The notes under the pieces are model-generated. The model ran no database searches, was not told the origin of the DNA, and worked only from the letters and a program-made list of their open reading frames with translations. Source: an uncultured virus (IMG/VR IMGVR_UViG_2881717282_000001) (taxonomy: Duplodnaviria; Heunggongvirae; Uroviricota; Caudoviricetes). From it: a stretch of DNA of 20,000 bases. The DNA lies in the IMG/VR virus record IMGVR_UViG_2881717282_000001, positions 48,093 through 68,092 of that record; one strand, given 5' to 3'. The translations under genes and the position numbers were made by a program. Below, in pieces: positions 1 to 15,381 of this stretch (positions are counted from its first letter, which is position 1; each line of letters starts with the position of its first letter).

Positions 1-2
1 GC

Positions 3-317
3 CCTTACGTTATCGTCCGCACCAATCAGCAGGAAGTGGATGCGCTGCTCGGCCCTATCAGTGAGACAGCACCTTCCAATCCTGCGACCGGTGCCTTCTG
101 GTATAAAATCAGTCACTCAGCAAAGACCGTCACGCTCCAGAAATATTCTGGCAGCGCTTGGGCGGATGCCACAGAAAAGCAGTCTCTGACCTATAACTGG
201 TATGCACAGGATAAGGATGGCAATGCAGTCACCTTTGGTAAGACTGGCAAGGTCATCTATCTCTCCGCTGCCGATATCGACAGCTTGCTGACACTGCAGT
301 GTGATATTTCCAACTAG
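3..317 (+). CDS. Phage tail-associated structural protein, C-terminal part (5' end outside the window)
   Basis: Frame is open from base 3 (PYVIVRTNQQEVDALLG...) to TAG at 317. Beta-rich, Ig-like ending (LTYNWYAQDKDGN...TLQCDISN). Lies directly upstream of tail and lysis genes. Confidence 0.7.
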   Translation, partial: PYVIVRTNQQEVDALLGPISETAPSNPATGAFWYKISHSAKTVTLQKYSGSAWADATEKQSLTYNWYAQDKDGNAVTFGKTGKVIYLSAADIDSLLTLQCDISN

Positions 318-328
318 GAGGTGGTCCT

Positions 329-877
329 ATGGCACTTATCACTTCCTGTCAGGCCTCTTTCCAGAATGTTGCTGGATACGAGGATGACATCGCAGCCCTT
401 CAGGAAAATGTGCGTGAGTGCTATTCGGAGATTTCAAAATCCTCAGAGCAGATTCGTCTCGCTGTCCGTGAAGATTATATCTCACGCTCGGAAATGGCAA
501 CTATCCAGCAGGATTTCCAATCTACGATTACACAAAACAGTAGCGAAATCCGTATGGACTTCTCCACTATCACAGACGAACTGAAGGACAATATCGCTAC
601 CAATCAAGAGCTCCTTGAAGAATATATCCGCTTCAAAGGAGCTCTTATTGAGCTTGGCAAGGTCGGAAACGCCTTCACTGCCGAGCTCTCCAACAATGAA
701 CTGGCCTTCAAAGAGAACGGTCAGAAAATCGCATATATCTCCAATAACAGCTTGGTCATCACCAATGCGGAGATTCGTAACAAACTATCCCTTGGAAATG
801 AGACCAGAGGATGGTTTGATTTTATCCCAAGAAGTAACGGTAACCTCTCTATCAAATGGAGAGGCCCGGCATCGTAA
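329..877 (+). CDS. Phage minor tail protein (coiled-coil N-terminus, beta C-terminus)
   Basis: 182 aa with RBS AGGAGG. The C-terminus (YIRF.GA.IELGK.GN...LSN..LAF..NGQKIAYISNN.L.ITNAEI...F.PRSNGNLS) is typical of the gene preceding DUF859-type tail genes in Firmicutes siphophages. Confidence 0.75.
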   Translation: MALITSCQASFQNVAGYEDDIAALQENVRECYSEISKSSEQIRLAVREDYISRSEMATIQQDFQSTITQNSSEIRMDFSTITDELKDNIATNQELLEEYIRFKGALIELGKVGNAFTAELSNNELAFKENGQKIAYISNNSLVITNAEIRNKLSLGNETRGWFDFIPRSNGNLSIKWRGPAS

Positions 878-891
878 AGGAGTGATTCATT

Positions 892-2787
892 ATGGCTTCC
901 AGCGGAAGTATTACAACCGGCCAGAAAGAAGGCCGCTCTGTTACTCTCTCTTGGACATTGTCCAGTCAGAATATAGCAAACAATACATCAACTATTGCAT
1001 GGACCCTCAAAGGTTCTGGCTCTGCAAGCGGCTGGGTCATGTCTGGTGGATTTAAGGCTGTTATCAATGGTACTACGGTTTATTCATCGTCTACGGATAA
1101 CCGTATCCAGCTGAAAAATGGCACTGTTGTTGCCTCCGGCTCTTTGACCATCGCTCATAATTCGGATGGTACAAAATCCTTCAATCTGAGTTGCGAGGCC
1201 GGTGTTTATACCTATGCAGTCAGTGTTTCAGCAAGTGGAACACATACGCTGAATACCATTCCAAGAGCCTCCTCGGTAACAGCCACCTCAGTGAATATGG
1301 GAAGCGCCACAACGATTACTATCTCAAGGGCTTCTTCCTCCTTCACCCATACGCTGACCTATGCCTTTGGCAATTCTACAGGTACCATCACGACAAAGAC
1401 CACCTCTACCTCGGTATCATGGACACCAGCTCTCACACTGGCAAATCAGATACCAAGCACGACAAGCGGTACTTGTACGATTACCTGCGATACCTACAAT
1501 GGCTCATCTAAGATTGGAACCAAAACCTGCACGCTAACTTTGACGGTTCCTTCCTCCGTCAAGCCTACCATCAGCAGTCTGACTGCTACTCGTGTGGACG
1601 GCTCTGTCCCTGCCGCTTGGGGTATCTATGTGCAGTCGAAGTCGAAAGCAACGCTAACGATAAATGGTGCTGCTGGAATCTACGGTTCCACTATAAAGTC
1701 CTACAGTATCAGTGGTGGCGGCTACTCTGGAACACAGAGTTCACTCACGACAGGCTTCCTTAACTCATCCGGAACGATTACCTTCACAGCAACCGTAACA
1801 GACTCCAGAGGAAGAACCTCTGCTGCAGCAACCGTGTCGATTTCTGTCATTGCCTACAGTCCACCTTCTTTTAGTTCCTACAACTCACAGCGTTGTAATA
1901 GTGGAGGCACGCTCACCGATGATGGAACCTACATCAAAGGAACGGTATCCTACAGCTTTGCTTCCTGCAGCTCCAAGAATACAGTGACTCGCTCCACCTA
2001 CTACCGAGTCTCCGGAAGCAGCACGTGGACCAATGCCTCTGCCAGCTTCAATTCCGGTACGGCCTTCACCTTTGGTGGCGGTAAGATTTCCACCGAGACC
2101 TCCTATGAGGTCCGCTATGATTTGAAGGATGCATTCTCAACTATCAGCATCACTGACATCGTATCTACGGCATCGGTAGTCATGGACTTTAAAAGTGGTG
2201 GCAAGGGTGTGGCCGTTGGTAAGGTATCTGAAACAGACAATTGCTTTGAGGTATCTGAAAAATGGGATGTAAAGGTCTACGGCAAATTGCTGAAGGATTA
2301 CATCAAGGAATTCACAGGTGCTCTTTATCCTGTCGGAAGTATCTACATGAGTGTCAAGAATACCAACCCTTCCACCTACTTTGGAGGCACTTGGGTGGCT
2401 TGGGGAACGGGCCGTGTTCCAGTCGGTGTGAATGCAAACGACACAAACTTTGCAACAGTAGAAAAAACAGGTGGTGCTTCTACTGTCACACTGACCACAG
2501 CGCAGATGCCTTCTCATACGCATGCAAAAGGTACGCTGGCAACAGCAAACGCTGGTGGGCATACCCATGACTTAAAGAACCAGAAAGCCTCATGGGGTAC
2601 CAGCGGTGGCAATCGAGTGCTTATCGACGCCACTTCCGGCTATACTGCTGTCAGCAACAAGACAACTACCAGCGCCGGTTCTCACTCGCACACTGTCTCT
2701 GGTTCCACTGCCGCAGCTGGTTCCGGCAGTGCCCACAATAACCTGCAGCCCTATATCACATGCTACATGTGGAAAAGGACTGCTTAA
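892..2787 (+). CDS. Siphovirus DUF859-like minor tail/receptor-binding protein with C-terminal baseplate/tail-fibre tip
   Basis: 631 aa, Ser/Thr-rich. Motifs include 'L.TIPRAS', 'TLTVP.SVKPTISS', 'YPVGSIYMS...NPS..FGGTW', HxH repeats (HTH, HTH, HSH) and the ending 'HNNLQPYITCYMWKRTA'. Confidence 0.85.
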   Translation: MASSGSITTGQKEGRSVTLSWTLSSQNIANNTSTIAWTLKGSGSASGWVMSGGFKAVINGTTVYSSSTDNRIQLKNGTVVASGSLTIAHNSDGTKSFNLSCEAGVYTYAVSVSASGTHTLNTIPRASSVTATSVNMGSATTITISRASSSFTHTLTYAFGNSTGTITTKTTSTSVSWTPALTLANQIPSTTSGTCTITCDTYNGSSKIGTKTCTLTLTVPSSVKPTISSLTATRVDGSVPAAWGIYVQSKSKATLTINGAAGIYGSTIKSYSISGGGYSGTQSSLTTGFLNSSGTITFTATVTDSRGRTSAAATVSISVIAYSPPSFSSYNSQRCNSGGTLTDDGTYIKGTVSYSFASCSSKNTVTRSTYYRVSGSSTWTNASASFNSGTAFTFGGGKISTETSYEVRYDLKDAFSTISITDIVSTASVVMDFKSGGKGVAVGKVSETDNCFEVSEKWDVKVYGKLLKDYIKEFTGALYPVGSIYMSVKNTNPSTYFGGTWVAWGTGRVPVGVNANDTNFATVEKTGGASTVTLTTAQMPSHTHAKGTLATANAGGHTHDLKNQKASWGTSGGNRVLIDATSGYTAVSNKTTTSAGSHSHTVSGSTAAAGSGSAHNNLQPYITCYMWKRTA

Positions 2788-2796
2788 TTTTTATCC

Positions 2797-2825
2797 GCAG
2801 CTATCAGATGGTAGCTGCTTTTCTT
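2797..2825 (+). terminator. Putative intrinsic terminator after the tail fibre gene
   Basis: Stem GCAGCTATC / GGTAGCTGC followed by TTTTCTT. Confidence 0.6.
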
Positions 2826-2857
2826 ATATCTAATTTCAGAAATGGAGGTACTTATCA

Positions 2858-3271
2858 ATGAAAGAATTCTGGAACACGATTCAACTCGTCTTTACCGGCA
2901 TTGGCGGCTGGCTCGGCTACTTCCTCGGAGGTTGGGATGGATTGCTCTACGCACTCATCGCATTTGTAGCCATCGACTATGTCACTGGCGTCATGTGCGC
3001 CATTAGTAATCACACCCTCTCCAGCGAGGTCGGCTTCAAAGGTATCTGTAGAAAGGTGCTTATTTTCTTGCTCGTTGGCATTGGCAGTATTCTTGATGCT
3101 CACGTCATCGGCTCTGGCAGTGTTCTTCGTACAGCGGTCATCTTCTTCTACATTTCCAATGAAGGTGTCAGCATTCTGGAAAACGCTGCTCGTCTCGGAC
3201 TTCCGGTCCCTGAAAAAATCAAAGTCGTATTAGAACAGCTTCACGACAGAAGCGCAAAGGATGGTGAATAA
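2858..3271 (+). CDS. Phage holin (phage_holin_4_1 / toxin secretion-phage lysis family)
   Basis: 137 aa. Contains 'GGWLGYFLGG.DGLLYALIAFV.IDYVTG', 'LSSEVGFKGICRK' and 'NEGVSILENAA.LGLPVP'. RBS GGAGG; directly upstream of the lysin. Confidence 0.93.
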   Translation: MKEFWNTIQLVFTGIGGWLGYFLGGWDGLLYALIAFVAIDYVTGVMCAISNHTLSSEVGFKGICRKVLIFLLVGIGSILDAHVIGSGSVLRTAVIFFYISNEGVSILENAARLGLPVPEKIKVVLEQLHDRSAKDGE

Positions 3272-3272
3272 A

Positions 3273-4259
3273 ATGAAGCTCGTACAATCTATTCTTACAA
3301 AGAACCCCTGCTATACCGCAGGAAGAAAAATCACTGTAAAAGGACTTATGCTCCACTCCGTCGGATGTCCTCAGCCAAGGGCATCCGTTTTCATTAACAA
3401 CTGGAACAGCCCTAGCTACAATAATGCCTGCGTCCACGGTTTTATTGATGGTAACGATGGCACTGTCTATCAGACACTTCCTTGGAATCATCGTGGCTGG
3501 CATGCAGGTGGTGCAGCAAACAATACTCATATCGGTGTTGAAATGTGTGAACCTGCCTGCATCAAATACACCGGTGGCTCTACTTTTACCTGCAGCGACC
3601 TTGCAACTGCAAAGGCTTCTGCAAAGAGAACCTACAACGCTGCCGTAGAGCTTTTCGCAATGCTCTGCAAGCAGTATGGGCTGAATCCTACTGCTGATGG
3701 CGTCATCATTTCTCATAAAGAAGGTCATGCCCGTGGCATTGCCTCCAATCACGGAGACCCGGAACATCTCTGGAGAGGTCTTGGCCTTTCTTACACGATG
3801 GCTGGATTCCGTAAGGATGTAAAAGCAGCTATGGGCTCTGGCTCTGCTCCTTCTGATGGAGGTACAAAGCAGCCAGCAACTCAGATGTACCGTGTCCGCA
3901 AAACTTGGTCCGATTCCAAGAGTCAGCTGGGTGCCTATAAGGTACTGGCCAATGCCAAGAAAAAAGCAGATGAGAATTCCGGTTACAAGGTATTTGATGC
4001 TTCCGGCAATGTTGTCTACCCAGCTGTATCCACACCGGCACCCACTCCTTCCAAGGATACTTCCTATAAAGTTCAGATTGATATCTCTAATCTGAATATC
4101 CGCAAAGGACCGGGTACCAACTATGGAAGAACCGGTCAGTTCACTGGCAAGGGAATCTTTACAATCGTTCAGGAATCCAAGGGTGAAGGTGCTACCCTCT
4201 GGGGCAAGCTGAAATCCGGAGCTGGATGGATTTCTCTCGATTTTGCAAAGAAGTTATAA
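3273..4259 (+). CDS. Endolysin, N-acetylmuramoyl-L-alanine amidase (Amidase_2) with C-terminal SH3-like cell-wall-binding domain
   Basis: Amidase motifs 'LMLHSVGCPQP', 'WHAGG..NNTHIGVEMCE' and 'HGDP'. SH3b-like C-terminus 'LNIRKGPGTNY...WGKLKSGAGWISL'. Start placed at ATG 3273, just after the holin stop. Confidence 0.93.
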   Translation: MKLVQSILTKNPCYTAGRKITVKGLMLHSVGCPQPRASVFINNWNSPSYNNACVHGFIDGNDGTVYQTLPWNHRGWHAGGAANNTHIGVEMCEPACIKYTGGSTFTCSDLATAKASAKRTYNAAVELFAMLCKQYGLNPTADGVIISHKEGHARGIASNHGDPEHLWRGLGLSYTMAGFRKDVKAAMGSGSAPSDGGTKQPATQMYRVRKTWSDSKSQLGAYKVLANAKKKADENSGYKVFDASGNVVYPAVSTPAPTPSKDTSYKVQIDISNLNIRKGPGTNYGRTGQFTGKGIFTIVQESKGEGATLWGKLKSGAGWISLDFAKKL

Positions 4260-4446: not shown

Positions 4447-4869
4447 ATGACAAGCGAACAGAAACAACAGATACATCTTCTAAGAGAGAAAGGATACGGC
4501 TATGCCACCATCGCTGAAGCTCTCGGTCTTACGAAGAATCAGGTGTCAGCCTATTGCAGAAGAAATAATCTCTCCGGTACAAAAGCAGAACGCACAGTTA
4601 GTAGTCGTCCAGATAGTGATTGCTGTCTTTGCTGCGGAAAGCCGCTGACCCAGACTCCCGGAAGAAAGCCTATCAAGTTTTGCAGCAATGAGTGCCGTGT
4701 TAAGTGGTGGAACAGCCATCAGGATATGGTGAATAAGAAAGCCATCTACTCCTTTACCTGCGCCTGCTGCGGAAAGGAGTTTACTGCTTATGGCAATGCA
4801 AAAAGAAAATACTGTTCTCACGCCTGCTACATCACCGACCGATTCGGAACCGGCAGCACCAATGACTGA
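4447..4869 (+). CDS. HTH plus Cys-rich zinc-finger protein (often annotated as a sigma-70 region 4 protein); candidate recombination accessory/directionality factor
   Basis: N-terminal HTH (GYGYATIAEALGLTKNQVSAYCRR), then CLCCGK..FCSNEC and CACCGKEF..YCSHAC. First gene of the recombinase operon. Confidence 0.75.
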   Translation: MTSEQKQQIHLLREKGYGYATIAEALGLTKNQVSAYCRRNNLSGTKAERTVSSRPDSDCCLCCGKPLTQTPGRKPIKFCSNECRVKWWNSHQDMVNKKAIYSFTCACCGKEFTAYGNAKRKYCSHACYITDRFGTGSTND

Positions 4870-5041
4870 TGAACAATTCGAGCGTGAAAAACGCTATCAG
4901 GCAAGCATGAATCTCTTCCAGAATATGCTCAACAAGGGCCTCATTACCCCTGAACAGTACGCCATAATTGATACAAAGATGCTGGAAAAATACCAGCCAC
5001 TATTGGGTACATTATTTGCCACAGATGGCTTGACTATATAG
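4862..5041 (+). CDS. Small SHOCT-like protein (59 aa) typical of tandem serine-recombinase modules
   Basis: MTDEQFEREKRYQASMNLFQNMLNKGLITPEQYAIIDTKMLEKYQPLLGTL. Start overlaps the end of the preceding gene (ATGACTGA). Confidence 0.75.
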   Translation: MTDEQFEREKRYQASMNLFQNMLNKGLITPEQYAIIDTKMLEKYQPLLGTLFATDGLTI

Positions 5042-5082: not shown

Positions 5083-6864
5083 ATGCGAAAAATCAACAAA
5101 ATCGAGCCAAAGATACCGACGCTGCCGACCAGAAAAAAGGTCGCTGCATACGCCAGAGTTTCAATGGAAACAGAGAGGCTCCACCATTCTTTATCAGCTC
5201 AGGTCAGTTACTACAGTGAACTGATTCAGCGCAATCCTGAATGGGAGTACGTTGGCGTATATGCAGATGACGGTATCACCGGCACACAAACAAATCGAGA
5301 AGAATTTCAAAGGCTTATGGCAGATTGCGAAGCTGGCAAGATAGACATTATTCTTACCAAGTCCATCTCCCGTTTTGCAAGAAACACCGTAGACCTTCTC
5401 CAGACAGTCCGTCACCTAAAGGAGCTTGGAATTGAAGTCCGCTTTGAAAAGGAACACATCAATTCACTCTCCGGCGATGGCGAGGTCATGCTGACGCTTC
5501 TGGCATCCTTTGCACAGGAAGAAAGCATCAGTATCAGCAACAATGTCAAATGGGGCACCAGAAAACGTTTCGAACAGGGAATTCCAAACGGTCGCTTTAT
5601 GATTTACGGCTATCGCTGGGAAGGTGACCATCTTGTCATTGAACCAGAAGAAGCCAAAATCGTAAAACTCATCTTCAACAATTTTCTCAAAGGTCTCTCC
5701 GCTGAGGCCACAGAAAAGCAGCTCGAAGAAATGGGTGTAAAGTCCTATAAGGGACAGCACTTTGGAAATACATCCATCCGCCAGATTCTTGGAAACATTA
5801 CCTACACTGGTAACCTTCTCTTTCAAAAGGAATATGTGGTTGACCCACTGACAAAGAAAACCAGAAAGAATAAGGGTGAGTTGCCACAGTATTATGTTGA
5901 GAACACCCACGAGGCTATCATCGACAAAGAAACCTTCGATACGGTCCAAGAAGAAATCAAAAGGCGCAGGTCCCTTGGTGTGTTTGCAAACTGGAGCATT
6001 AACACCACCTGCTTTACCAGCAAGGTAAAATGCAGCAAATGCGGCATGAGCTACCGACGCAGTGGAAAGCGCCAACGCAAGAATCCGGACGAAGTTTACT
6101 ATGTCTGGATATGCCGCAGCAAGAGCGACAAAGGTGCGAAGGCCTGTAGCGCCAAAACTATCCCGGAAAAGACGCTCAAACAGTGCTGTACTACTGTTCT
6201 TGGCCTTTCAGAATTTGACGAGGATGTCTTCTTGGATAAGGTTGAAAAGATTGTAGTTGTTGGTGACGACCAGCTGGACTTCTACTTCTATGATGGCCAT
6301 ATTGTAAACCACAAGTGGAAATCCACTGCCAGAACAGATTGCTGGTCTGATGAGCGTCGTAAGGCTTGGGGCGAACTTCATAAAGGTAAGAACTTCAGGA
6401 AAAAAGACCAGAATCCATTCACCGGCTACTTCCGCTGCCCTAACTGTGGCGGTAACTTCCGAAGACAATCCAGAACCTATGTGGATGGCACAAAATTCAC
6501 TTACTGGCATTGTGTAAACGGAACCAGCTGCGGAAATAAAAGCAAGCTGCCAGAAGAGACAGCAAAACAATTTATAGCCGATGCTGCTGGTACACCCGAA
6601 TTTGACGCTGATGCCTTCCACGATAAGATTGAAGCCATTTATATGACCGATACTTATGAGGCGACCATCCACATGAAGGATGGAAGCAAAATCGTCAGGA
6701 CATGGGAGCCATTAAAGCGTCGAGGCCACAAGCATACCGAGGAATACAAAGAGCATATGCGACGGCTCATGAAGGAGCGCTGGACAGATGAGCGCAAACA
6801 AGAAATGAGCGACAAAATGAAAAAGATAAGGAGTGAGAAATATTGGGCGTCAACAGGAAAGTAA
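5083..6864 (+). CDS. Large serine recombinase 1 (resolvase + recombinase domains + duplicated zinc-ribbon module)
   Basis: Catalytic 'YARVS', plus 'KSISRFARN', 'AQEES.SIS.N' and 'HEAII'. Two zinc-ribbon modules (CSKCG..., CPNCG...). RBS AAGGAG. Confidence 0.95.
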   Translation: MRKINKIEPKIPTLPTRKKVAAYARVSMETERLHHSLSAQVSYYSELIQRNPEWEYVGVYADDGITGTQTNREEFQRLMADCEAGKIDIILTKSISRFARNTVDLLQTVRHLKELGIEVRFEKEHINSLSGDGEVMLTLLASFAQEESISISNNVKWGTRKRFEQGIPNGRFMIYGYRWEGDHLVIEPEEAKIVKLIFNNFLKGLSAEATEKQLEEMGVKSYKGQHFGNTSIRQILGNITYTGNLLFQKEYVVDPLTKKTRKNKGELPQYYVENTHEAIIDKETFDTVQEEIKRRRSLGVFANWSINTTCFTSKVKCSKCGMSYRRSGKRQRKNPDEVYYVWICRSKSDKGAKACSAKTIPEKTLKQCCTTVLGLSEFDEDVFLDKVEKIVVVGDDQLDFYFYDGHIVNHKWKSTARTDCWSDERRKAWGELHKGKNFRKKDQNPFTGYFRCPNCGGNFRRQSRTYVDGTKFTYWHCVNGTSCGNKSKLPEETAKQFIADAAGTPEFDADAFHDKIEAIYMTDTYEATIHMKDGSKIVRTWEPLKRRGHKHTEEYKEHMRRLMKERWTDERKQEMSDKMKKIRSEKYWASTGK

Positions 6865-8426
6865 AAACCATACCGGCTACGCTGACAAAGTTTACAGCTA
6901 CGCCGATTACAGAACAGAAAAAGCGCAGGACTGCTGGATATGCCCGTGTTTCCACCGACCATGATGACCAGTTCACCAGCTACGCTGCGCAGATTGATTA
7001 TTATACCAACTACATCAAAGGCCGTGACGATTGGGAGTTCGTGGATGTCTATACCGATGAAGGTATCACCGGAACCAGCACCAAACGTCGAGAGGGCTTC
7101 AAGAATATGATTGCTGATGCCCTTGATGGCAAGATAGACCTAATCGTCACCAAGTCGGTCAGCCGATTTGCCAGAAACACGGTAGACAGCTTGACTACCA
7201 TCCGTAAGCTCAAGGAAAAAGGCGTAGAAGTCTACTTCGAGAAGGAAAACATCTGGACCTTCGACAGCAAAGGCGAGCTGCTGCTTACCATCATGTCCTC
7301 ACTGGCACAGGAAGAAAGCCGCTCCATTTCAGAGAACTGTACATGGGGCCAGCGAAAGCGATTTGCAGACGGTAAGGTCACCGTTCCCTTCAAGAGATTT
7401 CTTGGCTACGACCGTGGCCCAGACGGAAACCTTGTAGTAAATCCAGAACAGGCCGTTACCATCAAACGAATTTACAGTATGTTCCTTCAGGGAATGACCT
7501 ATCACGGGATAGCAAAACAGCTCACCGATGACGGCATCCTGACACCGGGCGGCAAAACAAACTGGAACCAATCAGCTGTAAAAAGCATTCTCACAAACGA
7601 AAAGTACAAAGGTGATGCCCTTTTGCAGAAGTCCTACACTACTGACTTCCTTACTAAGAAGACCAAGGTCAATGAAGGAGAAATCCCACAGTATTATGTA
7701 GAGAATAACCACGAAGCCATTATCGAGCCGGAAGTATTCGAAATGGTCCAGCGTGAGATATTGAAGCGAGGTCGAGGCAAGAAATACCACAGTGGAGTTC
7801 ACATCTTCTCCACTAAAATAAAATGCGGCTGCTGCGGAAGCTGGTACGGCTCAAAGGTCTGGCATTCCAACAGCAAATACCGTAAGGTCATCTGGCAATG
7901 CAATCACAAATTCGATAATGATGAGCGCTGCGATACGCCTCACCTTTACGAAGATGACATCAAGGCAGCATTCCTTTCCGCAGCAAACCAGCTGCTCTCC
8001 TGCAAGGACAGTGTCATTGCCGATGCTGAAGAAATGATGTCCGCCATCCTTGATACCACAGTATTGGAAAAAGAACAGGATGAGCTGCTCGAAGAGACAC
8101 AGCTTATTTCCGAGATGGTCCAAGCCGCCATTAGAGAAAATGCTACCGTTGCCCTAGACCAAACCGAATACCAGAAACGCTACGACAGCCTTTCGACAAA
8201 ATTCGACAAATCAAAAGCAAGGCTCGAACAGGTCATGGCCGACCTGCAACAGATGCAACTACAAAGAGCTGAATACGAATCCTTCCTCAAAACCTTCAAG
8301 CAGCTGCCGGACTCCTTGGAAGAGTTCAGCATTGACAGCTGGAATAGTCTTGTAGAATACGCAACAGTCTACAGCACTGACGACATCCGCTTCACCTTCA
8401 AGAACGGTCAGGAAATCAAGGCATAA
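6843..8426 (+). CDS. Large serine recombinase 2 (integrase-type with zinc ribbon and coiled coil)
   Basis: 'YARVST', 'KSVSRFARN', 'SSLAQEESRSISEN', 'CGCCG...WQC', then a long coiled coil. TTG start after AAGGAG, overlapping the end of LSR1. Confidence 0.95.
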   Translation: MGVNRKVKTIPATLTKFTATPITEQKKRRTAGYARVSTDHDDQFTSYAAQIDYYTNYIKGRDDWEFVDVYTDEGITGTSTKRREGFKNMIADALDGKIDLIVTKSVSRFARNTVDSLTTIRKLKEKGVEVYFEKENIWTFDSKGELLLTIMSSLAQEESRSISENCTWGQRKRFADGKVTVPFKRFLGYDRGPDGNLVVNPEQAVTIKRIYSMFLQGMTYHGIAKQLTDDGILTPGGKTNWNQSAVKSILTNEKYKGDALLQKSYTTDFLTKKTKVNEGEIPQYYVENNHEAIIEPEVFEMVQREILKRGRGKKYHSGVHIFSTKIKCGCCGSWYGSKVWHSNSKYRKVIWQCNHKFDNDERCDTPHLYEDDIKAAFLSAANQLLSCKDSVIADAEEMMSAILDTTVLEKEQDELLEETQLISEMVQAAIRENATVALDQTEYQKRYDSLSTKFDKSKARLEQVMADLQQMQLQRAEYESFLKTFKQLPDSLEEFSIDSWNSLVEYATVYSTDDIRFTFKNGQEIKA

Positions 8427-8615: not shown

Positions 8616-8915
8616 TTATATTTTTTCCAAGTTGTCGATAAATACTTGAAGTCCAGCAAGTAAACCCGGATATTTTTTCAAGAAATCATCTGGTTGCTTC
8701 TTTTTCAAATAGTTCAATTCGTCTTCAAAAAGCGCATCGAGTGAGATGTCGAGTTTAGCCGCCAGAACGAGTAGCTTCTCTACTTCTGGATAACCACCGT
8801 CACGCTCCCATTTAGATACAGCCTGACGGCTAAAGTTCTCACCGAAGAAATCGGCCACGTCGTCTTGGGACAGTCCTTTTTCTTCTCTTCTGGCTTTTAG
8901 CTTCTCACCAAACAT
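8616..8915 (-). CDS. XRE-family HTH transcriptional regulator
   Basis: 'FGEKLKARREEKGLSQDDVA...SRQAVSKWE....PEVEKL..LA..LDISLD.L'. RBS GAGGTG before ATG at 8915. Confidence 0.92.
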   Translation of the reverse strand: MFGEKLKARREEKGLSQDDVADFFGENFSRQAVSKWERDGGYPEVEKLLVLAAKLDISLDALFEDELNYLKKKQPDDFLKKYPGLLAGLQVFIDNLEKI

Positions 8916-8967
8916 ATCAATCACCTCTCTTTCTGATTACATTTTACTTGCTATGGAAGAAAAAATC

Positions 8968-9005
8968 GAAAACCTGAATTTGCATCTAGCAACTTGAAGT
9001 TGCTA
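8968..9005. promoter_or_regulatory. Putative XRE operator(s)
   Basis: Perfect inverted repeat TAGCAACTT-G-AAGTTGCTA at 8987-9005, with an adjacent degenerate copy (minus strand GCAAATTCAGGTTTTC), upstream of the XRE gene. Confidence 0.6.
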
Positions 9006-9009
9006 ATCT

Positions 9010-10188
9010 CTATTTTGAATCTTGTTCGTTCTCATCATGTTCAGGCAAAGCATATCCACCAGTCATATCTGATAAAAATGGATAATAGTGGAATGGCTCA
9101 TCCTGACAGATAGCCATAAACATTTCATGCTCATATCCAGTGGTTTGTGGCGTGTATTTTCGATAATATACTTCTTTTTCATCCTTAATGCTTAATGACA
9201 CTCCATCGTCTGGCTTCATTATCCCAACAATTCTTTCGGACGCAGAGTCTCTAAGCATAATAATTGGATACGGAGAATTGAATACCTCAATGCTCTCCTC
9301 CTCCGAACCGTTCATTCGGTCGCAGACAAGAAGGACTTGATATGAATCTTGAATATTGGCTGCATCCACCTCTATATAGTGATAATGATTAACTGGGGAG
9401 CGCATAGCCTTATAATCCTCTTCGCTTCCAAAGAATAAATAAGTTTTCGGGTTATATAATCTATGTGCAACATGTTGATTGTCTACATTGGCGAAAAAGG
9501 TCTCTATGTATGTCTTGGAATCGTCCAAGATACTGCTGCAAAAATTTATTTTCTTTTTCAACAAATCAAGCGCATTTTCTTTGACATGCGGTCTTCCGTC
9601 TTTTTCAAACTCTGGTACTGCAACGCTCCCTTTGACTGCTAAAATATCAAACTTGTTTTCAACATATATCTGACGTCTATGCTTTAATGTATTGTTATAG
9701 TCAGCAATATAGAGATACTCCTGATTAGTTGGCAGCGCAATTACGTCCGTTATAAATTGTCCTGTATATTCAGGGAAAGAAGCCATCTTTCCTGCAACCT
9801 TTGTAAGCGATACTCGCTCCATCGGTAATCCATCTTCTGCAAATAGACTTGCATTTAACCACTGAGCAAACGTGTCAAAGAAATTATGCAATAAGCTCAA
9901 TATCTCCATTGTGAGCTTATCCATAATCACTGTGGGAGATGCTTCCACTCCTAAATAATTAACACTATTGGTATGCGCAGAATATGTTCCTTTACCTTTC
10001 GTGGCTGCATCTCTATAAAATTCTTCTGCCACATCTGTTTCTTTTTTCTGATAATCTGCAACAACATTATTTAATGCCGATAGGCTCAATTGGGCCAAAT
10101 ACAATTTATAACTACATGCTTCATAATACTGATATGCATCAACCATCTTCTTATCTTTCAAAAATTTTATAAACTTGTAATCTGTCAT
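9010..10188 (-). CDS. Hypothetical prophage cargo protein with a putative N-terminal HEPN-like (Cthe_2314-like) domain and an unknown C-terminal domain
   Basis: 392 aa. Helical N-terminal ~230 aa contains 'LHNFFDTFAQWLN' and 'YIADYNNTLKHR', an N-x3-H variant of the HEPN Rx4H motif. AT-rich relative to the phage core. The CDS is solid; the family call is tentative. Confidence 0.5.
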   Translation of the reverse strand: MTDYKFIKFLKDKKMVDAYQYYEACSYKLYLAQLSLSALNNVVADYQKKETDVAEEFYRDAATKGKGTYSAHTNSVNYLGVEASPTVIMDKLTMEILSLLHNFFDTFAQWLNASLFAEDGLPMERVSLTKVAGKMASFPEYTGQFITDVIALPTNQEYLYIADYNNTLKHRRQIYVENKFDILAVKGSVAVPEFEKDGRPHVKENALDLLKKKINFCSSILDDSKTYIETFFANVDNQHVAHRLYNPKTYLFFGSEEDYKAMRSPVNHYHYIEVDAANIQDSYQVLLVCDRMNGSEEESIEVFNSPYPIIMLRDSASERIVGIMKPDDGVSLSIKDEKEVYYRKYTPQTTGYEHEMFMAICQDEPFHYYPFLSDMTGGYALPEHDENEQDSK

Positions 10189-10374
10189 CTAAAACACCCC
10201 TTCACTTTTAAATTTTGCGTATATCTCTAGCATCTGCTTCCCAATGACTTCCGGTTCACACTTGTTAGCTTCGCAAATCATCCTCAAGCCATCCGGTGTA
10301 AGTATTCTTCCGTATGTCCTATCTTCACACAGTTTATTATAATCTTCCAGCTGCTTCTTTGTAATTGTTGGCAT
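10189..10374 (-). CDS. Small hypothetical protein (61 aa), translationally coupled to the 392-aa gene
   Basis: RBS GGAGG before ATG 10374 (MPTITKKQLEDY...GRILTPDGLRMICEA). Its TAG directly abuts the ATG of the next gene. Confidence 0.75.
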   Translation of the reverse strand: MPTITKKQLEDYNKLCEDRTYGRILTPDGLRMICEANKCEPEVIGKQMLEIYAKFKSEGVF

Positions 10375-10413
10375 GTATAAAACCTCCGTATAAAAAAATA
10401 AGCCGGTACGGGA

Positions 10414-10445
10414 CCGACACCTCAAACGACACCCCGACACCTCAA
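10414..10445. repeat. Direct repeats next to the prophage att end
   Basis: CCGACACCTCAA at 10414-10425 and 10434-10445, with a third core CGACACC at 10427-10433. Confidence 0.75.
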
Positions 10446-10448
10446 GGG

Positions 10449-11168
10449 TTATGCAACATTAAATTGTATTAAATAGCGAGTCTTAATTTCGTAAACTTTA
10501 TTGATAGATGTTTTGCCTACAGTTCCCAATTTTGTCAAAAGTACTGAAACCTGTGAAGGTGTGAAAAACTCACCTCCAGACTTACCTGCATTAGACGCAT
10601 ACATAGACATCAAATATTCATAAGCATCTCCAAACGCATCAATATCATGATCTGAGATAGAACCCAGCTTCATATCGCGAATACCAATCAGCAATTTAGC
10701 AAGTCGTTTGTTTCTTTGTGCAACAGTATTTCCCAATTTATTGCTATTAACATCAAAATCATCAAACAATCCAGAAAAATCAGCTTCTGATTCTGTACCA
10801 GATGCGGATTCTTCAATATGTCGGAATACTTTTTCTAATGTTTCGTTTAAGTTTTCATCTTTTTCAGCACGACTACAAACATTGGAAAAAAGTTCACTTG
10901 GCAAGATAAAATATCCCTTTTCATTTACCAGTCCTTCTCGTGCTTCTTCTGCTTCATCATCTGACATTTTTGCATAATCAAAATCGGTGTTTCCTGCATC
11001 CCATTCGCCCTGATTGATATAATATGTCAAATCTTCTGATATATAACGATAAAACATCGTGCCAAGAACATAATTTTTAAAATCCCAACCATCTACGGCT
11101 CCTCGTAGATCATCAGCTATGCTCCATATAGCACGATGTAATTCTTCTCTTTGATTATTATTTGGCAT
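10449..11168 (-). pseudogene. hsdM: Type I restriction-modification methyltransferase subunit, 5' fragment disrupted by prophage insertion
   Basis: 'QREELHRAIWSIADDLRGAVDGWDFKNYVLG', 'DAFGDAYEYLM.MYASNAGKSGGEFFTP'. After 'INKVY' the expected DPACGSG is replaced by EIKTRYLIQFNVA*. Confidence 0.93.
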
Positions 11169-11335
11169 TGTACTCTCCCTTTATATGTTATTAAATGTTC
11201 TCTTTAATGTAAGCGTCAGATAAAACAGTGGATTCCAATTCATCAATAAATCTCCGATAATTTTAGTGAATTCAATTAGAGTTTTTAGAGCTGCTCCAAG
11301 AACTTTAAAAAATTCTAGATCGGAGTCTAAATTAT

Positions 11336-11713
11336 ATGAAGGCTGAATTATCTCCTGTGAAACAGGTGAAGATCGAATACTGGCTTGAAGTGATCCATAA
11401 GTGCCGGGCCAGTGGTCTCACAAATACAGAATTTTGTAAACAGAACAATATCAGTGAAAAAAGCTATTACTATTATCTGGCCAAGATTCGAAAGATGGCG
11501 ATCGAAGATATCCCGAAGAAAAATTCAAATCTTCCAGTTGACTGGTCATCAAAAAATAAAAATACCTGTTTTGAAGAAATACCTGTATCTTCATTGCCTG
11601 CTGCACATACTGATTCCATATCTATCCATATCGGTAATGTGGATATCGAAATGTCAGAAGATGTATCGGAAGAATTTCTGATCAAATTATTTAGAGCGGC
11701 ATCAAAATGTTAG
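11336..11713 (+). CDS. tnpA: IS66 accessory protein TnpA (HTH)
   Basis: 'W...I..CRASGLT...FC..NNISEKSYYYY...IRK'; overlaps tnpB. Confidence 0.88.
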   Translation: MKAELSPVKQVKIEYWLEVIHKCRASGLTNTEFCKQNNISEKSYYYYLAKIRKMAIEDIPKKNSNLPVDWSSKNKNTCFEEIPVSSLPAAHTDSISIHIGNVDIEMSEDVSEEFLIKLFRAASKC

Positions 11714-12060
11714 ATCTAAACAAACTCGATCACATCTATTTAGCTTGTGGTCATACCGATATGCGAAAGTCAATTGATGGTCTTTCCGCCATCGTCCAGG
11801 AAGAATTTCAATTGGATCCGTTTTCAAGCAGTCTGTTTCTTTTTTGTGGAAGGAAGAATGATCGGATCAAGGCATTGTATTGGGATGGTGATGGTTTTCT
11901 TTTGATGTATAAACGTTTGGAAGACGGACGGTTCAGATGGCCTAGAAAACAGAAAGAAGTCAAAGATCTTACACATCAGCAGCTTCGATGGCTGCTGGAA
12001 GGATTAGAGATCGAACAGCCGAAGGTCATCAAAAAAGTCAGTCCAAAAAGTGTGATATAA
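11707..12060 (+). CDS. tnpB: IS66 accessory protein TnpB
   Basis: 'IYLACG.TDMRKSIDGL', 'LFLFCGR...RIKALYWDGDGF.L.YKRLE.GRF.WP', 'LRWLLEGL'. Confidence 0.95.
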   Translation: MLDLNKLDHIYLACGHTDMRKSIDGLSAIVQEEFQLDPFSSSLFLFCGRKNDRIKALYWDGDGFLLMYKRLEDGRFRWPRKQKEVKDLTHQQLRWLLEGLEIEQPKVIKKVSPKSVI

Positions 12061-12106
12061 ATCGCTCAAAAACGCGATATATAAAGCATATTATGGTATA
12101 ATATAG

Positions 12107-13588
12107 ATGATGAAAACAGGCCAGATCAATGATCAAGACTACAAAGAATTATATCTTCAGACAAAGCAGTTATATGCAGATATGATGACTGTATATGATG
12201 AATTGAAGAAACAGGTTGAACTGCTTCAACAGGAAAATTTCTTATTGAAGGAAACCAATGAATATTACCGAAAAAAACTGTTCGGAACCAAAAGTGAGAC
12301 GGCAAGGTCACTTGGTTTTGAGCAGCTTTCTTTATTTGATGAGGCCGAAACGATACTGGGAGAGAATCCCGGATATGTGGATATCACCTATAAACGCAAG
12401 AAGAAACATAAAAAAGTGCCTGGCGAGATCAGTGCAAAATTTAAGAACCTGCCAAAGATCAAACGACTGCTGGATATCCCCAAAGAAGACCGGTACTGTG
12501 AACAATGTGGATCTGAGATGGTCCGTGTCGGTGAAGAGTTCGTACGCAATGAATTGAAGTTCACACCGCCAAAACTGGAACTGGTCGAAGTATATCGAAC
12601 GACATATGAATGCAGAAACTGCAGGAAACATGGCAAGCCCCATATGATTAAAGCAGAAGTACCGGCCAATGTGATACCGCACAGCTATGCATCCGCAGAC
12701 AGTGTGGCATATATCATGGTACAGAAGTATGTGAATGCAGTGACACTTTACCGGCAGGAGCAGACATGGAAGCACCTGGGAGCAGAATTGAGCCGTGCCA
12801 CCATGTCAAGCTGGATGGTCATTGCTGCCAGAGAATGGCTATATCCTTTGATTCGCAGGATGCATTCCATATTGATTGATCAGAAGTATATCCATGCGGA
12901 TGAAACAACGGTCCAGGTGCTCAAAGAAAAAGACAAGAAGAATACTTCAAAGTCATATATGTGGGTATATACAACGCATAAATATTCGAAGACACCGATA
13001 CGATTGTTCGATTATCAGCCGAACCGGAAAGGTATCCAGGCAAAGGAATACCTGGAAGGATTCAGTGGATCATTGATCACCGATGCGTATGCAGGATATG
13101 ATCAGATCAACGGAGTAGAACACTGTTACTGCTGGGCACATCTGAGAAGATATTTCACCGATGCCCTGCCAAAGGATCTGAAGTCAATGAATGCCACCTA
13201 TCCAAAACAGGCCATCGAGAAACTGCAGAAGATCTTCCATGAAGAAGCATTATTAGAAGATCTTGATGCAGAGACCAGACAAAGGAAACGGAAAGAGATA
13301 CAGGCGCCAATGGTCGAAGAATTTTTTGCGTGGATAGAAACAAATAAGGACAAAGTACTTGCGTCATCAAAATGCGGAAAGGCTTTTCATTATGCTCTAA
13401 ACCAGAAAGCAGGACTCATCAAATATCTGGAAGATGGAAATATACCAATGACCAACAGCATAGCTGAAAGAGCTATACGGCCATTCACGGTCGGCAGAAA
13501 AAACTGGCTGTTCAATGGAGGACCACAAGGAGCGAAAGCGAGTGCAGCGATATACAGTATCGTCGAAACAGCGAAAGCGAGAGTGTAA
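12107..13588 (+). pseudogene. tnpC: IS66 transposase TnpC, C-terminally truncated by IS256 insertion
   Basis: Leucine zipper, 'LFG.KSE', zinc finger, 'HADET', 'TDAYAGY', 'CWAHLRR.F', 'NSIAERAIRPF.VGRKNWLF'. Ends at 'SIVETAKA' plus RV* supplied by the IS256 end, and lacks the usual IS66 C-terminal element. Confidence 0.9.
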
Positions 13589-13685
13589 TCTAAACTGTGT
13601 AAGTTAGTTAGATGCGTACGGCTAACTAATGAACACAGTTTTTATTATGCCTATCTCATGATATGGTTGAAGGAGAAAAAGGAAA

Positions 13686-15040
13686 ATGAATGAAATGAGT
13701 AAAATTAAAAGAAATCCCGCCGCTGTCAAGATTGCCAATGAAATCCTTAAAGAATATGACTGTGATTCATTAACCGATATGCAGGATGCTCTCAAAGAAA
13801 TCTTTGGTCCATTGTTTGAAGGCATGCTTCAGGGGGAAATGGACAATCATCTTGGTTATAAATCCAATTCAAAAGAGCCAAAATCTACAAAGAACAGAAG
13901 AAATGGTTCCAATCCCAAAACTTTAAAAACCACAATGGGAGAAGTAGAAATCAATGCGCCAAGAGACAGGAATGGATCCTTCGAACCAGTCATTGTTCCC
14001 AAACGATCAAAGGATGTTTCCGATATCGAAGGAAAGGTATTATCCATGTATGCACGTGGAATGTCACAACGTGATATCTCATCAACGATCGAGGATATTT
14101 ATGGTTTTAAAGTATCACATGATATGATNTCGAAGGAAAGGTATTATCCATGTATGCACGTGGAATGTCACAACGGGATATCTCATCAACGATCGAGGAT
14201 ATTTATGGTTTTAAAGTATCCCATGATATGATCTCGGATATAACCAATGCTATCCTTCCGGAAGTGGAAGAATGGCAGAACAGACCGCTCAAAAAATGTT
14301 ACCCATTTGTTTTTGTCGACTGTATGTATGTTTCTGTCAGAAACGATTATGAAGCCAAAGAAGAAGCCGTTTATGTGATTCTTGGGTATGACCTGCAGGG
14401 ACAAAAGGAAATTCTTGGTTTGTGGATGGATTCCACGGAATCAAAGAACTACTGGATGCAGGTATTTGATGAGATCAAGGCACGAGGAGTCGAAGATATC
14501 TTTTTCATTTCTATGGATGGCGTATCCGGTCTTGAATCGGGTGCCAAAGCTATTTTCCCCGGAGTTGTCGTACAAAGATGTATCGTTCATCTGATTCGGA
14601 ACTCCATCCGATATGTACCAACCAAGGACTACAAAAAATTCACTGCCGATCTTAAAAAAGTATATGGAGCCTCTTCACTAAAAGCAGCTAAGACTGCGTT
14701 CGACACATTCTGCGACAACTGGAAACAATATCCTGGAGCGATCGAAGTATGGAAAAGGAATTTCCTTCATGTAGAACAGCTGTTTGATTATGGATCTGCT
14801 GTTCGAAAAGTCATGTATACGACAAATGCGATCGAATCGGTAAATTCCTCCTTTCGAAAAGTGACGAAAAAAGGGTCATTTCCAAATCATGAAGCTGTAT
14901 TCAAGCTGCTCTATTTACGGGTGAAGGAACTACAGAAAAAATGGGACAAAGGACATTTGAATAATTGGTCGATGGTATTGAATCAATTGTTGGTCAACGA
15001 TCAGTTTAAGGATCGTATCGAAAAGTACATTCAATACTGA
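13686..15040 (+). CDS. IS256-family (Mutator) transposase, artificially split by an assembly join
   Basis: 'EMDNHLGY', 'NRRNG', 'PRDRNGSFEP', 'MYARGMSQRDI', 'EWQNRPL', 'QRCIVHLIRNS', 'YTTNAIES.N'. Removing the 103-bp duplication and the N gives one continuous 416-aa frame. Confidence 0.92.
14026..14232. other. Scaffold-join artefact: 103-bp duplication around N at 14129
   Basis: 14026-14128 is repeated at 14130-14232 with two synonymous differences (CGT/CGG, TCA/TCC). Confidence 0.9.
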
Positions 15041-15167
15041 ATCTTGAAATGATATATATTCCANATAATTGGTCGATGGTATTGAATCAATTGTTGGTCA
15101 ACGATCAGTTTAAGGATCGTATCGAAAAGTACATTCAATACTGAATCTTGAAATGATATATATTCCA
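14961..15167. other. Scaffold-join artefact: 103-bp duplication around N at 15064
   Basis: 14961-15063 is repeated at 15065-15167. Confidence 0.9.
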
Positions 15168-15381
15168 ATTTCCTTGTTTACAATGAGACTCCGCCCCTAA
15201 GAACCCGAAAAAACGGCCAGTCAAAAAAATCAATTTTCAGCTGGCCGTTTTAAGCATACCTTAGGGTCGATCATTATAAACAAGTTTTCTCGGCATAAAA
15301 CATCATTTTAAAAACAAGATCGAGAACTTATCAAAATCGACTATAAAATATTAAATACACACTTTTCTTGACAAACCCATA

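Follow-up and report, generated by a model that had tools for sequence, protein, structure and literature searches.

The segment from position 10449 to 11168 of the window (the whole 20,000-nt stretch analysed, positions 48,093 to 68,092 of IMG/VR record IMGVR_UViG_2881717282_000001) is very probably an attL, in which the P' arm of a temperate siphophage is joined to a type I methylase gene, hsdM, cut by one or more large serine recombinases at the GA of its motif I Asp codon. Lysogeny by this phage probably switches off a host defence. The features found in the window, with their strand in brackets, were as follows:

1..4259 (+): prophage late genes, including tail/baseplate at 892-2787 (DUF859 + Gp10_C), holin at 2858-3271 and amidase endolysin at 3261-4259
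4447..5041 (+): 140-aa HTH/Cys-rich protein (p140; phrog_2308) and SHOCT_2 protein, upstream of SR1
5083..6864 (+): SR1, large serine recombinase of 593 aa (Resolvase + Recombinase + Zn_ribbon_recom; catalytic motif YARVS)
6843..8426 (+): SR2, large serine recombinase of 527 aa (Resolvase + Recombinase + Zn_ribbon_recom; catalytic motif YARVST)
8616..10440 (-): att-side phage genes, namely an XRE-type HTH regulator (8616-8924), a 392-aa ORF without a family match and an 83-aa ORF
10402..10447 (-): the 12-nt direct repeat CCGACACCTCAA (+ strand) in two copies, with a terminator-like hairpin, immediately inward of the phage end
10449..10488 (-): attL arm from the phage (P'); past a hybrid GAA codon formed across the core, it adds 12 whole codons IKTRYLIQFNVA and then a stop
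10489..10490 (-): GA core of the crossover (+ strand, TC), the opening two bases of the motif I Asp codon
10491..11168 (-): host hsdM 5' fragment, codons 1-226 (HsdM_N and the start of N6_Mtase; last residues ...INKVY)
11209..15378 (+): IS66-family element (tnpA/B/C, 11336-13588) and IS256-family transposase, both from Pfam matches and not part of the phage

Truncated hsdM and its crossover point

The minus-strand ORF 10449-11168 encoded 239 aa, which read as a type I methylase as far as ...GGEFFTPSQVSVLLTKLGTVGKTSINKVY and continued from there as EIKTRYLIQFNVA*, so that the initial annotation was right to describe an hsdM running up to INKVY and then into foreign sequence (...INKVY-E-IKTRYLIQFNVA*). 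Pfam matches to this ORF comprised HsdM_N and, from the 311 positions of the N6_Mtase profile, positions 2-42 only. Motif I (DPACGSG) and motif IV (NPPY) were absent from the fragment and sat on another protein, P0124 (see below), which marks the window copy as a broken member and not a natural short form.

The three blastn alignments of the window with intact hsdM loci (L005, L002 and L046) all stopped at 10489. Among contigs from public sequencing runs, the phage-side ones ended at 10490 and the hsdM-side one started at 10489. The end of homology to intact hsdM thus coincides with the GA at about 10489-10490 that had been proposed as the att crossover, and site-specific integration of a serine-recombinase prophage into hsdM, with a GA core directly before motif I, is supported. 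Decay of the fragment was also considered, as 10 of 153 near-invariant columns differed from the consensus compared to 0-3 in intact copies, and was rejected in view of the intact alleles in the same cluster, which match the window copy exactly. The dN/dS ratio was uninformative for the fragment, dS being saturated.

The same break in related hsdM genes

In a reference set of 80 hsdM loci, drawn from contigs of one genome per species, 69 continued through KVYD-PACGSGSLL, ten broke after the same GA and one (L027) was frameshifted there, while 79 of 80 metagenomic hsdM loci were intact and the remaining one was broken at the same codon. Such recurrence of a break at one nucleotide is far beyond chance. 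For six pairs made of a broken copy and its nearest intact relative, homology (80-95% nucleotide identity; 91-95% in four of the six) ended at one base. The 11 broken copies were scattered over a DNA tree of 78 rows, where 9 changes were needed (10.5 on average with shuffled labels) and starred branches forced at least five. As broken copies lie scattered among intact ones, the breaks arose many times and do not descend from one inherited truncated gene.

The complete arrangement was found on an IMG/VR contig of 26,709 bp (G023), organised as hsdM 5'|element|hsdM 3' with GA at both joints. It started with ...NKVYD|IIMQSLIQFN (TACGA|TATAATC) and ended with ...KDGIFI|DPACGSG (TATAGA|CCCAGC), and joining the two ends restored KVYDPACGSG in frame. 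Its interior possessed homologues of p140, SHOCT, SR1, SR2, the 83-aa ORF and the XRE gene. Among 57 IMG/VR loci with an hsdM 3' half, seven were attR sites with TTGTATCAA-N16-GA|YCC, 46 were intact and four lacked the motif. No second case with both halves was found in the seven attR contigs or in five contigs of the type III mod type. Two further loci, L151 and L152, were 99.2% identical over 12,788 nt and diverged directly after the TC core, past which L151 ran into a second att arm (attP) and L152 into a host gene.

A matching hsdM 3' half was not found in any of the five related genomes with an hsdM-type junction, one of which is complete. In Levyella, the far end of the prophage abutted ahpF, adjoining a truncated polA, and in BVAB1 short remnants stood in tandem together with further broken methylase genes. 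Given the absent 3' halves and the position of the Levyella far end at ahpF, such insertions seem often to end as trapped remnants.

Several observations were made at individual loci. At L027 (6226-6366), an extra G located exactly at the crossover, TATGGACCCC instead of TATGACCCC, shifted the hsdM frame; it may be an imprecise-excision scar or a MAG sequencing error. Levyella (L089:7229-8272 and L090:400-3100) also possessed a methylase 3' ORF that started at motif I (GLDSSCGTGG) and was followed by an HsdS-like gene. It was set aside as a candidate far junction, as no P-arm motif occurred at the right distance and the prophage ends elsewhere. In BVAB1 (genome G004 of 592.4 kb, L088 at about base 2460, and L030:10666-14772), a phage arm was joined to DPACGSGVFLV of a different long methylase, after 21-nt tandem repeats, and adjoined the recombinase end of a second prophage, which gives this junction the opposite orientation. 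At a distance of 50 kb, the same organism harboured a single serine recombinase together with two methylase pieces, one an hsdM 5' fragment and the other an HsdM_N fragment of another lineage.

The 3' half and the rebuilt gene

The initial annotation had proposed, as a check, looking for an hsdM 3' half starting with (D)PACGSG at the other prophage end, and a protein of that description exists. P0124 (348 aa), annotated by its source as HsdM of Absicoccus porci, began with 54 non-HsdM residues ending in ...YACIKDCVLI and then continued with DPACGSGSLLLK... to the normal C-terminus. Its pattern CIKD-x4-D corresponds to the translation of the phage's other arm, as in the attR junctions of relatives. 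The attR of the window phage is known as protein only (P0124, ...LI|DPACGSG). P0124 and P0001, the 239-aa protein of the window, each occurred on a single contig of 931,075 bp, and this equal length together with the equal species name suggests that both lie on one contig.

The intact 521-aa HsdM protein P0128, present on seven contigs, showed 0 mismatches both to the 226 aa of the window and to the 294 C-terminal aa of P0124, and in silico 226 aa + D + 294 aa reproduced its 521 aa. Because P0128 matches both halves exactly, precise excision at the GA would rebuild an allele that is intact in other strains. Intact 521-aa proteins without mismatch over the 226 aa were P0122, P0123, P0125-P0129 and P0133. 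P0002, a 521-aa HsdM in a cluster of 73 members, was listed at 100% identity to residues 1-226 and had one mismatch when counted. Among the 15 cluster members listed, 12 were full length, two were of the attL type, including P0131 with a slightly different phage tail, and one was of the attR type. Scanning metagenomes with the hsdM fragment yielded no copy closer than 81%, and hence no attB for the window allele.

At attR, the frame was open for 30-62 codons upstream of DPACGSG, giving annotated HsdM proteins of 325-357 aa (P0124; G025, G026 and G028-G030). With this open frame, a phage-driven, N-terminally shortened methylase might be expressed in lysogens.

Phage genes and recombinases

Two serine recombinases had been noted inward of the junction, and SR1 and SR2 proved to carry three large-serine-recombinase domains each, with PF00239 matches at E values of 1.5e-31 (SR1) and 1.6e-33 (SR2) and both PF07508 and PF13408 in either protein. 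The two genes overlapped by 22 nt, and both products matched the phrog_95 integrase (E = 2.5e-148 for SR2). SR2 had at least 80 relatives in IMG/VR, at 62-87% identity, and SR1 was always in tandem with SR2 in these relatives. The 83-aa ORF and the XRE gene recurred beside SR2, and the order p140-SHOCT-SR1-SR2 was kept in nearly all related loci reaching that far (L096-L175). p140 and the SHOCT_2 protein are therefore mentioned as candidate accessory or directionality factors. All phage ORFs in the window were open, and the late-gene part showed weak DNA matches to gut phage records. Judged by its sequence, the phage is a member of a large gut prophage family with the module holin-lysin-p140-SHOCT-SR1-SR2. 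In one IMG/VR contig (L143), the lysis-recombinase module was mirrored about position 9600 to give a perfect palindrome, probably an assembly artefact.

Arms of the attachment sites

On the + strand, the P' arm of the window comprised TTGTATTAA at 10464-10472, followed by 16 nt and then TC, and this TTGTATTAA differed by one mismatch from the arm common to broken relatives. The arm TTGATACAA(T)TTAA was located about 15-17 nt from the GA at 16 further junctions and at 28 IMG/VR junctions. A complete attP was present in L151, as TTGTATCAA-N16-TC-N16-TTGATACAA, with imperfect inverted-repeat arms around the core, and the attP rebuilt from the two arms of G023 had the same form. As far as sequence can tell, the attP of the family is an inverted repeat, TTGTATCAA-N16-GA-N15-17-TTGATACAA, a layout that comes from the relatives L151 and G023 and to which the window phage contributes its P' arm only. 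The GA core was found at both G023 junctions, in seven attR and 16 attL sites and in the attL of the window, without long direct repeats.

The direct repeats previously noticed in the non-hsdM sequence are real, the 12-nt CCGACACCTCAA occurring twice (10414-10425 and 10434-10445) beside the terminator-like hairpin. Read-through from the hsdM promoter into phage genes was set aside, as the hairpin follows the fragment. In many relatives, a GGGGTGTCG-like motif was located 40-60 nt inward from the phage end, and in the window it was repeated.

Targets beyond hsdM

The 80 loci related to SR2 were scanned for the arm motif, which was present in 41. After removal of matches whose flank translations had many stops, and of five at contig ends, 28 IMG/VR junctions were kept and classified as follows:

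hsdM type (n = 9): ending in ...Y before GA; Pfam, run on six, found HsdM_N + N6_Mtase in five and N6_Mtase only in L135
Type III mod type (n = 8): ending in ...GDNLE.LK...K(M/C)IYI; L108 aligned to EcoP15I Mod
Other (n = 8): FxTP-like motif, then a hydrophobic residue at the end; methylase-like, putative
attP (n = 1): L151
Unclear (n = 2)

The L108 fragment, the sole mod-type fragment compared with solved structures, aligned to residues 21-122 of EcoP15I Mod (E = 1.5e-8), a match that presumably ends just before the DPPY motif. Searches of the fragments in the other class against Pfam, NCBIfam and PDB returned nothing usable. The recombinase pairs inserted in hsdM (L106) and in mod (L108) were 98.9% identical for SR1 and SR2 alike, and identical P' arms occurred in phages of different target classes. 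The feature common to the sites was GA followed by YCC in intact genes, corresponding to the Asp/Glu-Pro codons of methylase motif I or IV. On these sequences, the recombinase family seems to home to a methylase motif, in hsdM, type III mod and apparently other methylase genes. The target is thus wider than hsdM, a point missing from the initial annotation.

A further-reaching proposal, put forward tentatively and with considerable doubt, is that this gut prophage family evolved paired serine integrases that home to methyltransferase Asp/Glu-Pro codons, in motif I for type I hsdM and other N6 methylases and in motif IV for type III mod, so that lysogeny deliberately disarms host restriction-modification and prophage loss re-arms it. 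If this were true, the system would be re-armed in a cell whose chromosome is unmethylated, which would penalise curing and turn the defence of the host into an addiction device, and lysogens would be open to foreign DNA.

Insertion sequences beside hsdM and public sequencing runs

The IS66/IS256 block began 40 bp upstream of the hsdM start codon. A contig from run X2 contained the same hsdM 5' DNA with 0 mismatches and without this block, joining 11208 to 15379 with 190 other letters in its place, and with 2,073 other letters replacing the phage. With the native DNA beyond these 40 bp replaced by the block, a rebuilt hsdM might lack a promoter. In runs X1 and X2, the phage-side contigs carried 28 letters past 10490 that did not fit the window and that may belong to an attP, an attB or another host gene, as may the 2,073 letters beside the hsdM end in X2.

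The window was held almost fully by 18 runs and at least partly by 20 rows from 13 studies, mostly of pig gut, and the runs that hold it best may include the source sample. The window had an N at 14129 and at 15064, and three runs skipped 104 nt (14117 to 14222), for which reason the IS256 transposase ORFs seem to be split through a duplication, around an N, that arose in assembly.

Probable consequences for the host and alternative readings

In the proposed course of events, SR1, SR2 or both would catalyse insertion at the GA of the motif I Asp codon, cutting an intact hsdM of 521 codons. The 5' part (226 codons) would gain a 13-residue phage-derived tail, and the 3' part, from DPACGSG to the end, would come to lie on the same contig at the far prophage end, with about 54 phage-arm codons fused to it. 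A split between motif X (FFTP) and motif I would leave no working M subunit, and methylation and restriction by the type I system would therefore be off in the lysogen. Excision upon induction would restore hsdM. By default, the locus is read as ordinary lysogeny that disarms a host defence.

That the prophage is trapped, no longer excisable, and that hsdM is permanently lost in the window genome, is considered unlikely. Related cases are indeed remnants (the deleted far end in Levyella, the short tandem remnants in BVAB1), IS66/IS256 activity is seen directly beside the hsdM fragment, and the junction appears stable, as at least 93% of its words occur in 18 runs. Against this, there is a 3' half that equals intact alleles, the hsdM fragment is free of stop codons and shows 0 changes relative to intact alleles, the phage ORFs of the window are all open, and in runs X1 and X2 the phage end continues into other letters.

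The initial annotation had gone beyond integration to a possible reversible switch of restriction. Its integration reading stands; a regulated switch, in which lysis-free excision would restore hsdM and restriction before a later re-integration, is quite unlikely, and on balance less likely than ordinary lysogeny. Such active lysogeny has reportedly been described for comK/phi10403S. Both hsdM halves being identical to intact alleles, both recombinase genes being intact, the coexistence of strains with intact and with split identical alleles, and the branching of contig graphs at the core would all suit a switch. However, lysogenisation of some strains explains the allele polymorphism equally well, the 3' half was missing from the five related genomes, the IS66 block stands 40 bp upstream of hsdM, and no directionality factor was identified. 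Type I enzymes cut unmodified sites and methylate them poorly, and self-restriction would be expected when the system returns to an unmethylated cell. A restored type I system would thus be harmful in a long-term lysogen, which makes a freely reversible switch less likely and points to a cost of curing. The same idea of a switch is raised for integrative and conjugative elements (ICEs) in hsdM by Ambroset et al. (PMC4701971).

Finally, it is barely credible that the HsdM N-terminal fragment belongs to the phage as a gene of its own, for example a type I restriction decoy, and is not a broken host gene. In favour of this idea, the frame was open in all 11 genome-copy rows examined, the five related genomes lacked the 3' half, host core genes lay directly upstream of the fragment in relatives, and both GenBank and a published prophage survey place ORFs of this type in phage records. 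Against it, broken copies are interspersed with intact ones and match different intact genes at 92-96% nucleotide identity, homology stops at a single nucleotide, matching 3' halves that bear phage arms are known, the L151 attP is free of any hsdM piece, and the same phages adjoin unrelated methylase 5' ends.

Relation to known elements

Disruption of a host defence by ordinary lysogeny, the reading preferred here, has parallels among large-serine-recombinase elements that split host genes, such as A118/phi10403S in comK, SPbeta in spsM and skin in sigK, where the crossover is precise at 2 bp and excision can therefore rebuild the frame. Like these elements, the present prophage lies inside a coding gene, encodes large serine recombinases and has a 2-bp crossover; unlike them, it targets a defence gene, and its family targets many methylase genes and not one locus. 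The clostridial recombinases TnpX of Tn4451 and TndX of Tn5397 also use a GA crossover core, at targets resembling the joint of the circular form. Those elements are transposons of small size that encode a single recombinase and have less strict targets, whereas the present element is a phage of 40-50 kb with a protein-motif-coding target. Multi-targeting large serine recombinases, in which one enzyme uses several related attB sites, are known from large-scale surveys, and the sites described here differ from theirs in all belonging to one functional class, D/E-P codons within motifs I and IV of restriction-modification methyltransferases. Site-specific integration that splits genes is thus already known, and what is new is motif-directed, multi-gene targeting. 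In the open-access literature, no report was found that ties multi-targeting large serine recombinases to methylase genes or that describes phage integration into hsdM or methylase motifs.

Among bacterial defences, restriction-modification is the most common, and a widespread gut prophage lineage inserting into methylase genes would link lysogeny directly to the immune state and methylome of the host. Gene flow would be affected, as "immune-off" lysogens would take up DNA more easily. Serine integrases whose natural attB is a short motif found in many bacteria could be of use for engineering the genomes of gut Firmicutes. The existence of an identical allele both intact and split among strains makes this a cleanly testable case.

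The closest described elements are the streptococcal ICEs, whose serine-integrase triplets insert into hsdM, mutT or traG according to Ambroset et al. (2016, PMC4701971), which bears out the earlier statement that such elements occur in streptococcal hsdM and also cites the comK case. Both systems share tandem large serine recombinases by the target, a disrupted type I methylase gene and very short direct repeats (2-8 bp in the ICEs, likewise short here). The ICEs are conjugative and carry recombinase triplets, in contrast to a tailed phage with lysis and tail genes and with two recombinases in the window (three in L001). No conjugation genes (relaxase, coupling protein, VirB4) were found in the 10.5 kb of the element that lie in the window.

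The phenomenon seems to be present in existing data and unrecognised, since a GenBank record carries such an ORF and a prophage survey counts an "HsdM N-terminal domain" ORF as phage cargo. Insertion into methylase genes would explain orphan HsdM N-terminal ORFs filed in this way. The GenBank record, PV036454.1, is classed in Ca. Heliusvirales, whose defining paper makes no mention of an integrase or hsdM. Labelled as a complete genome, it ends in a 238-aa hypothetical protein (61176-61892; L083:1-717), and as this protein is an hsdM 5' fragment that breaks at ...RIYE|KTFSTLIQ, the end of the record is host DNA at an attL junction.
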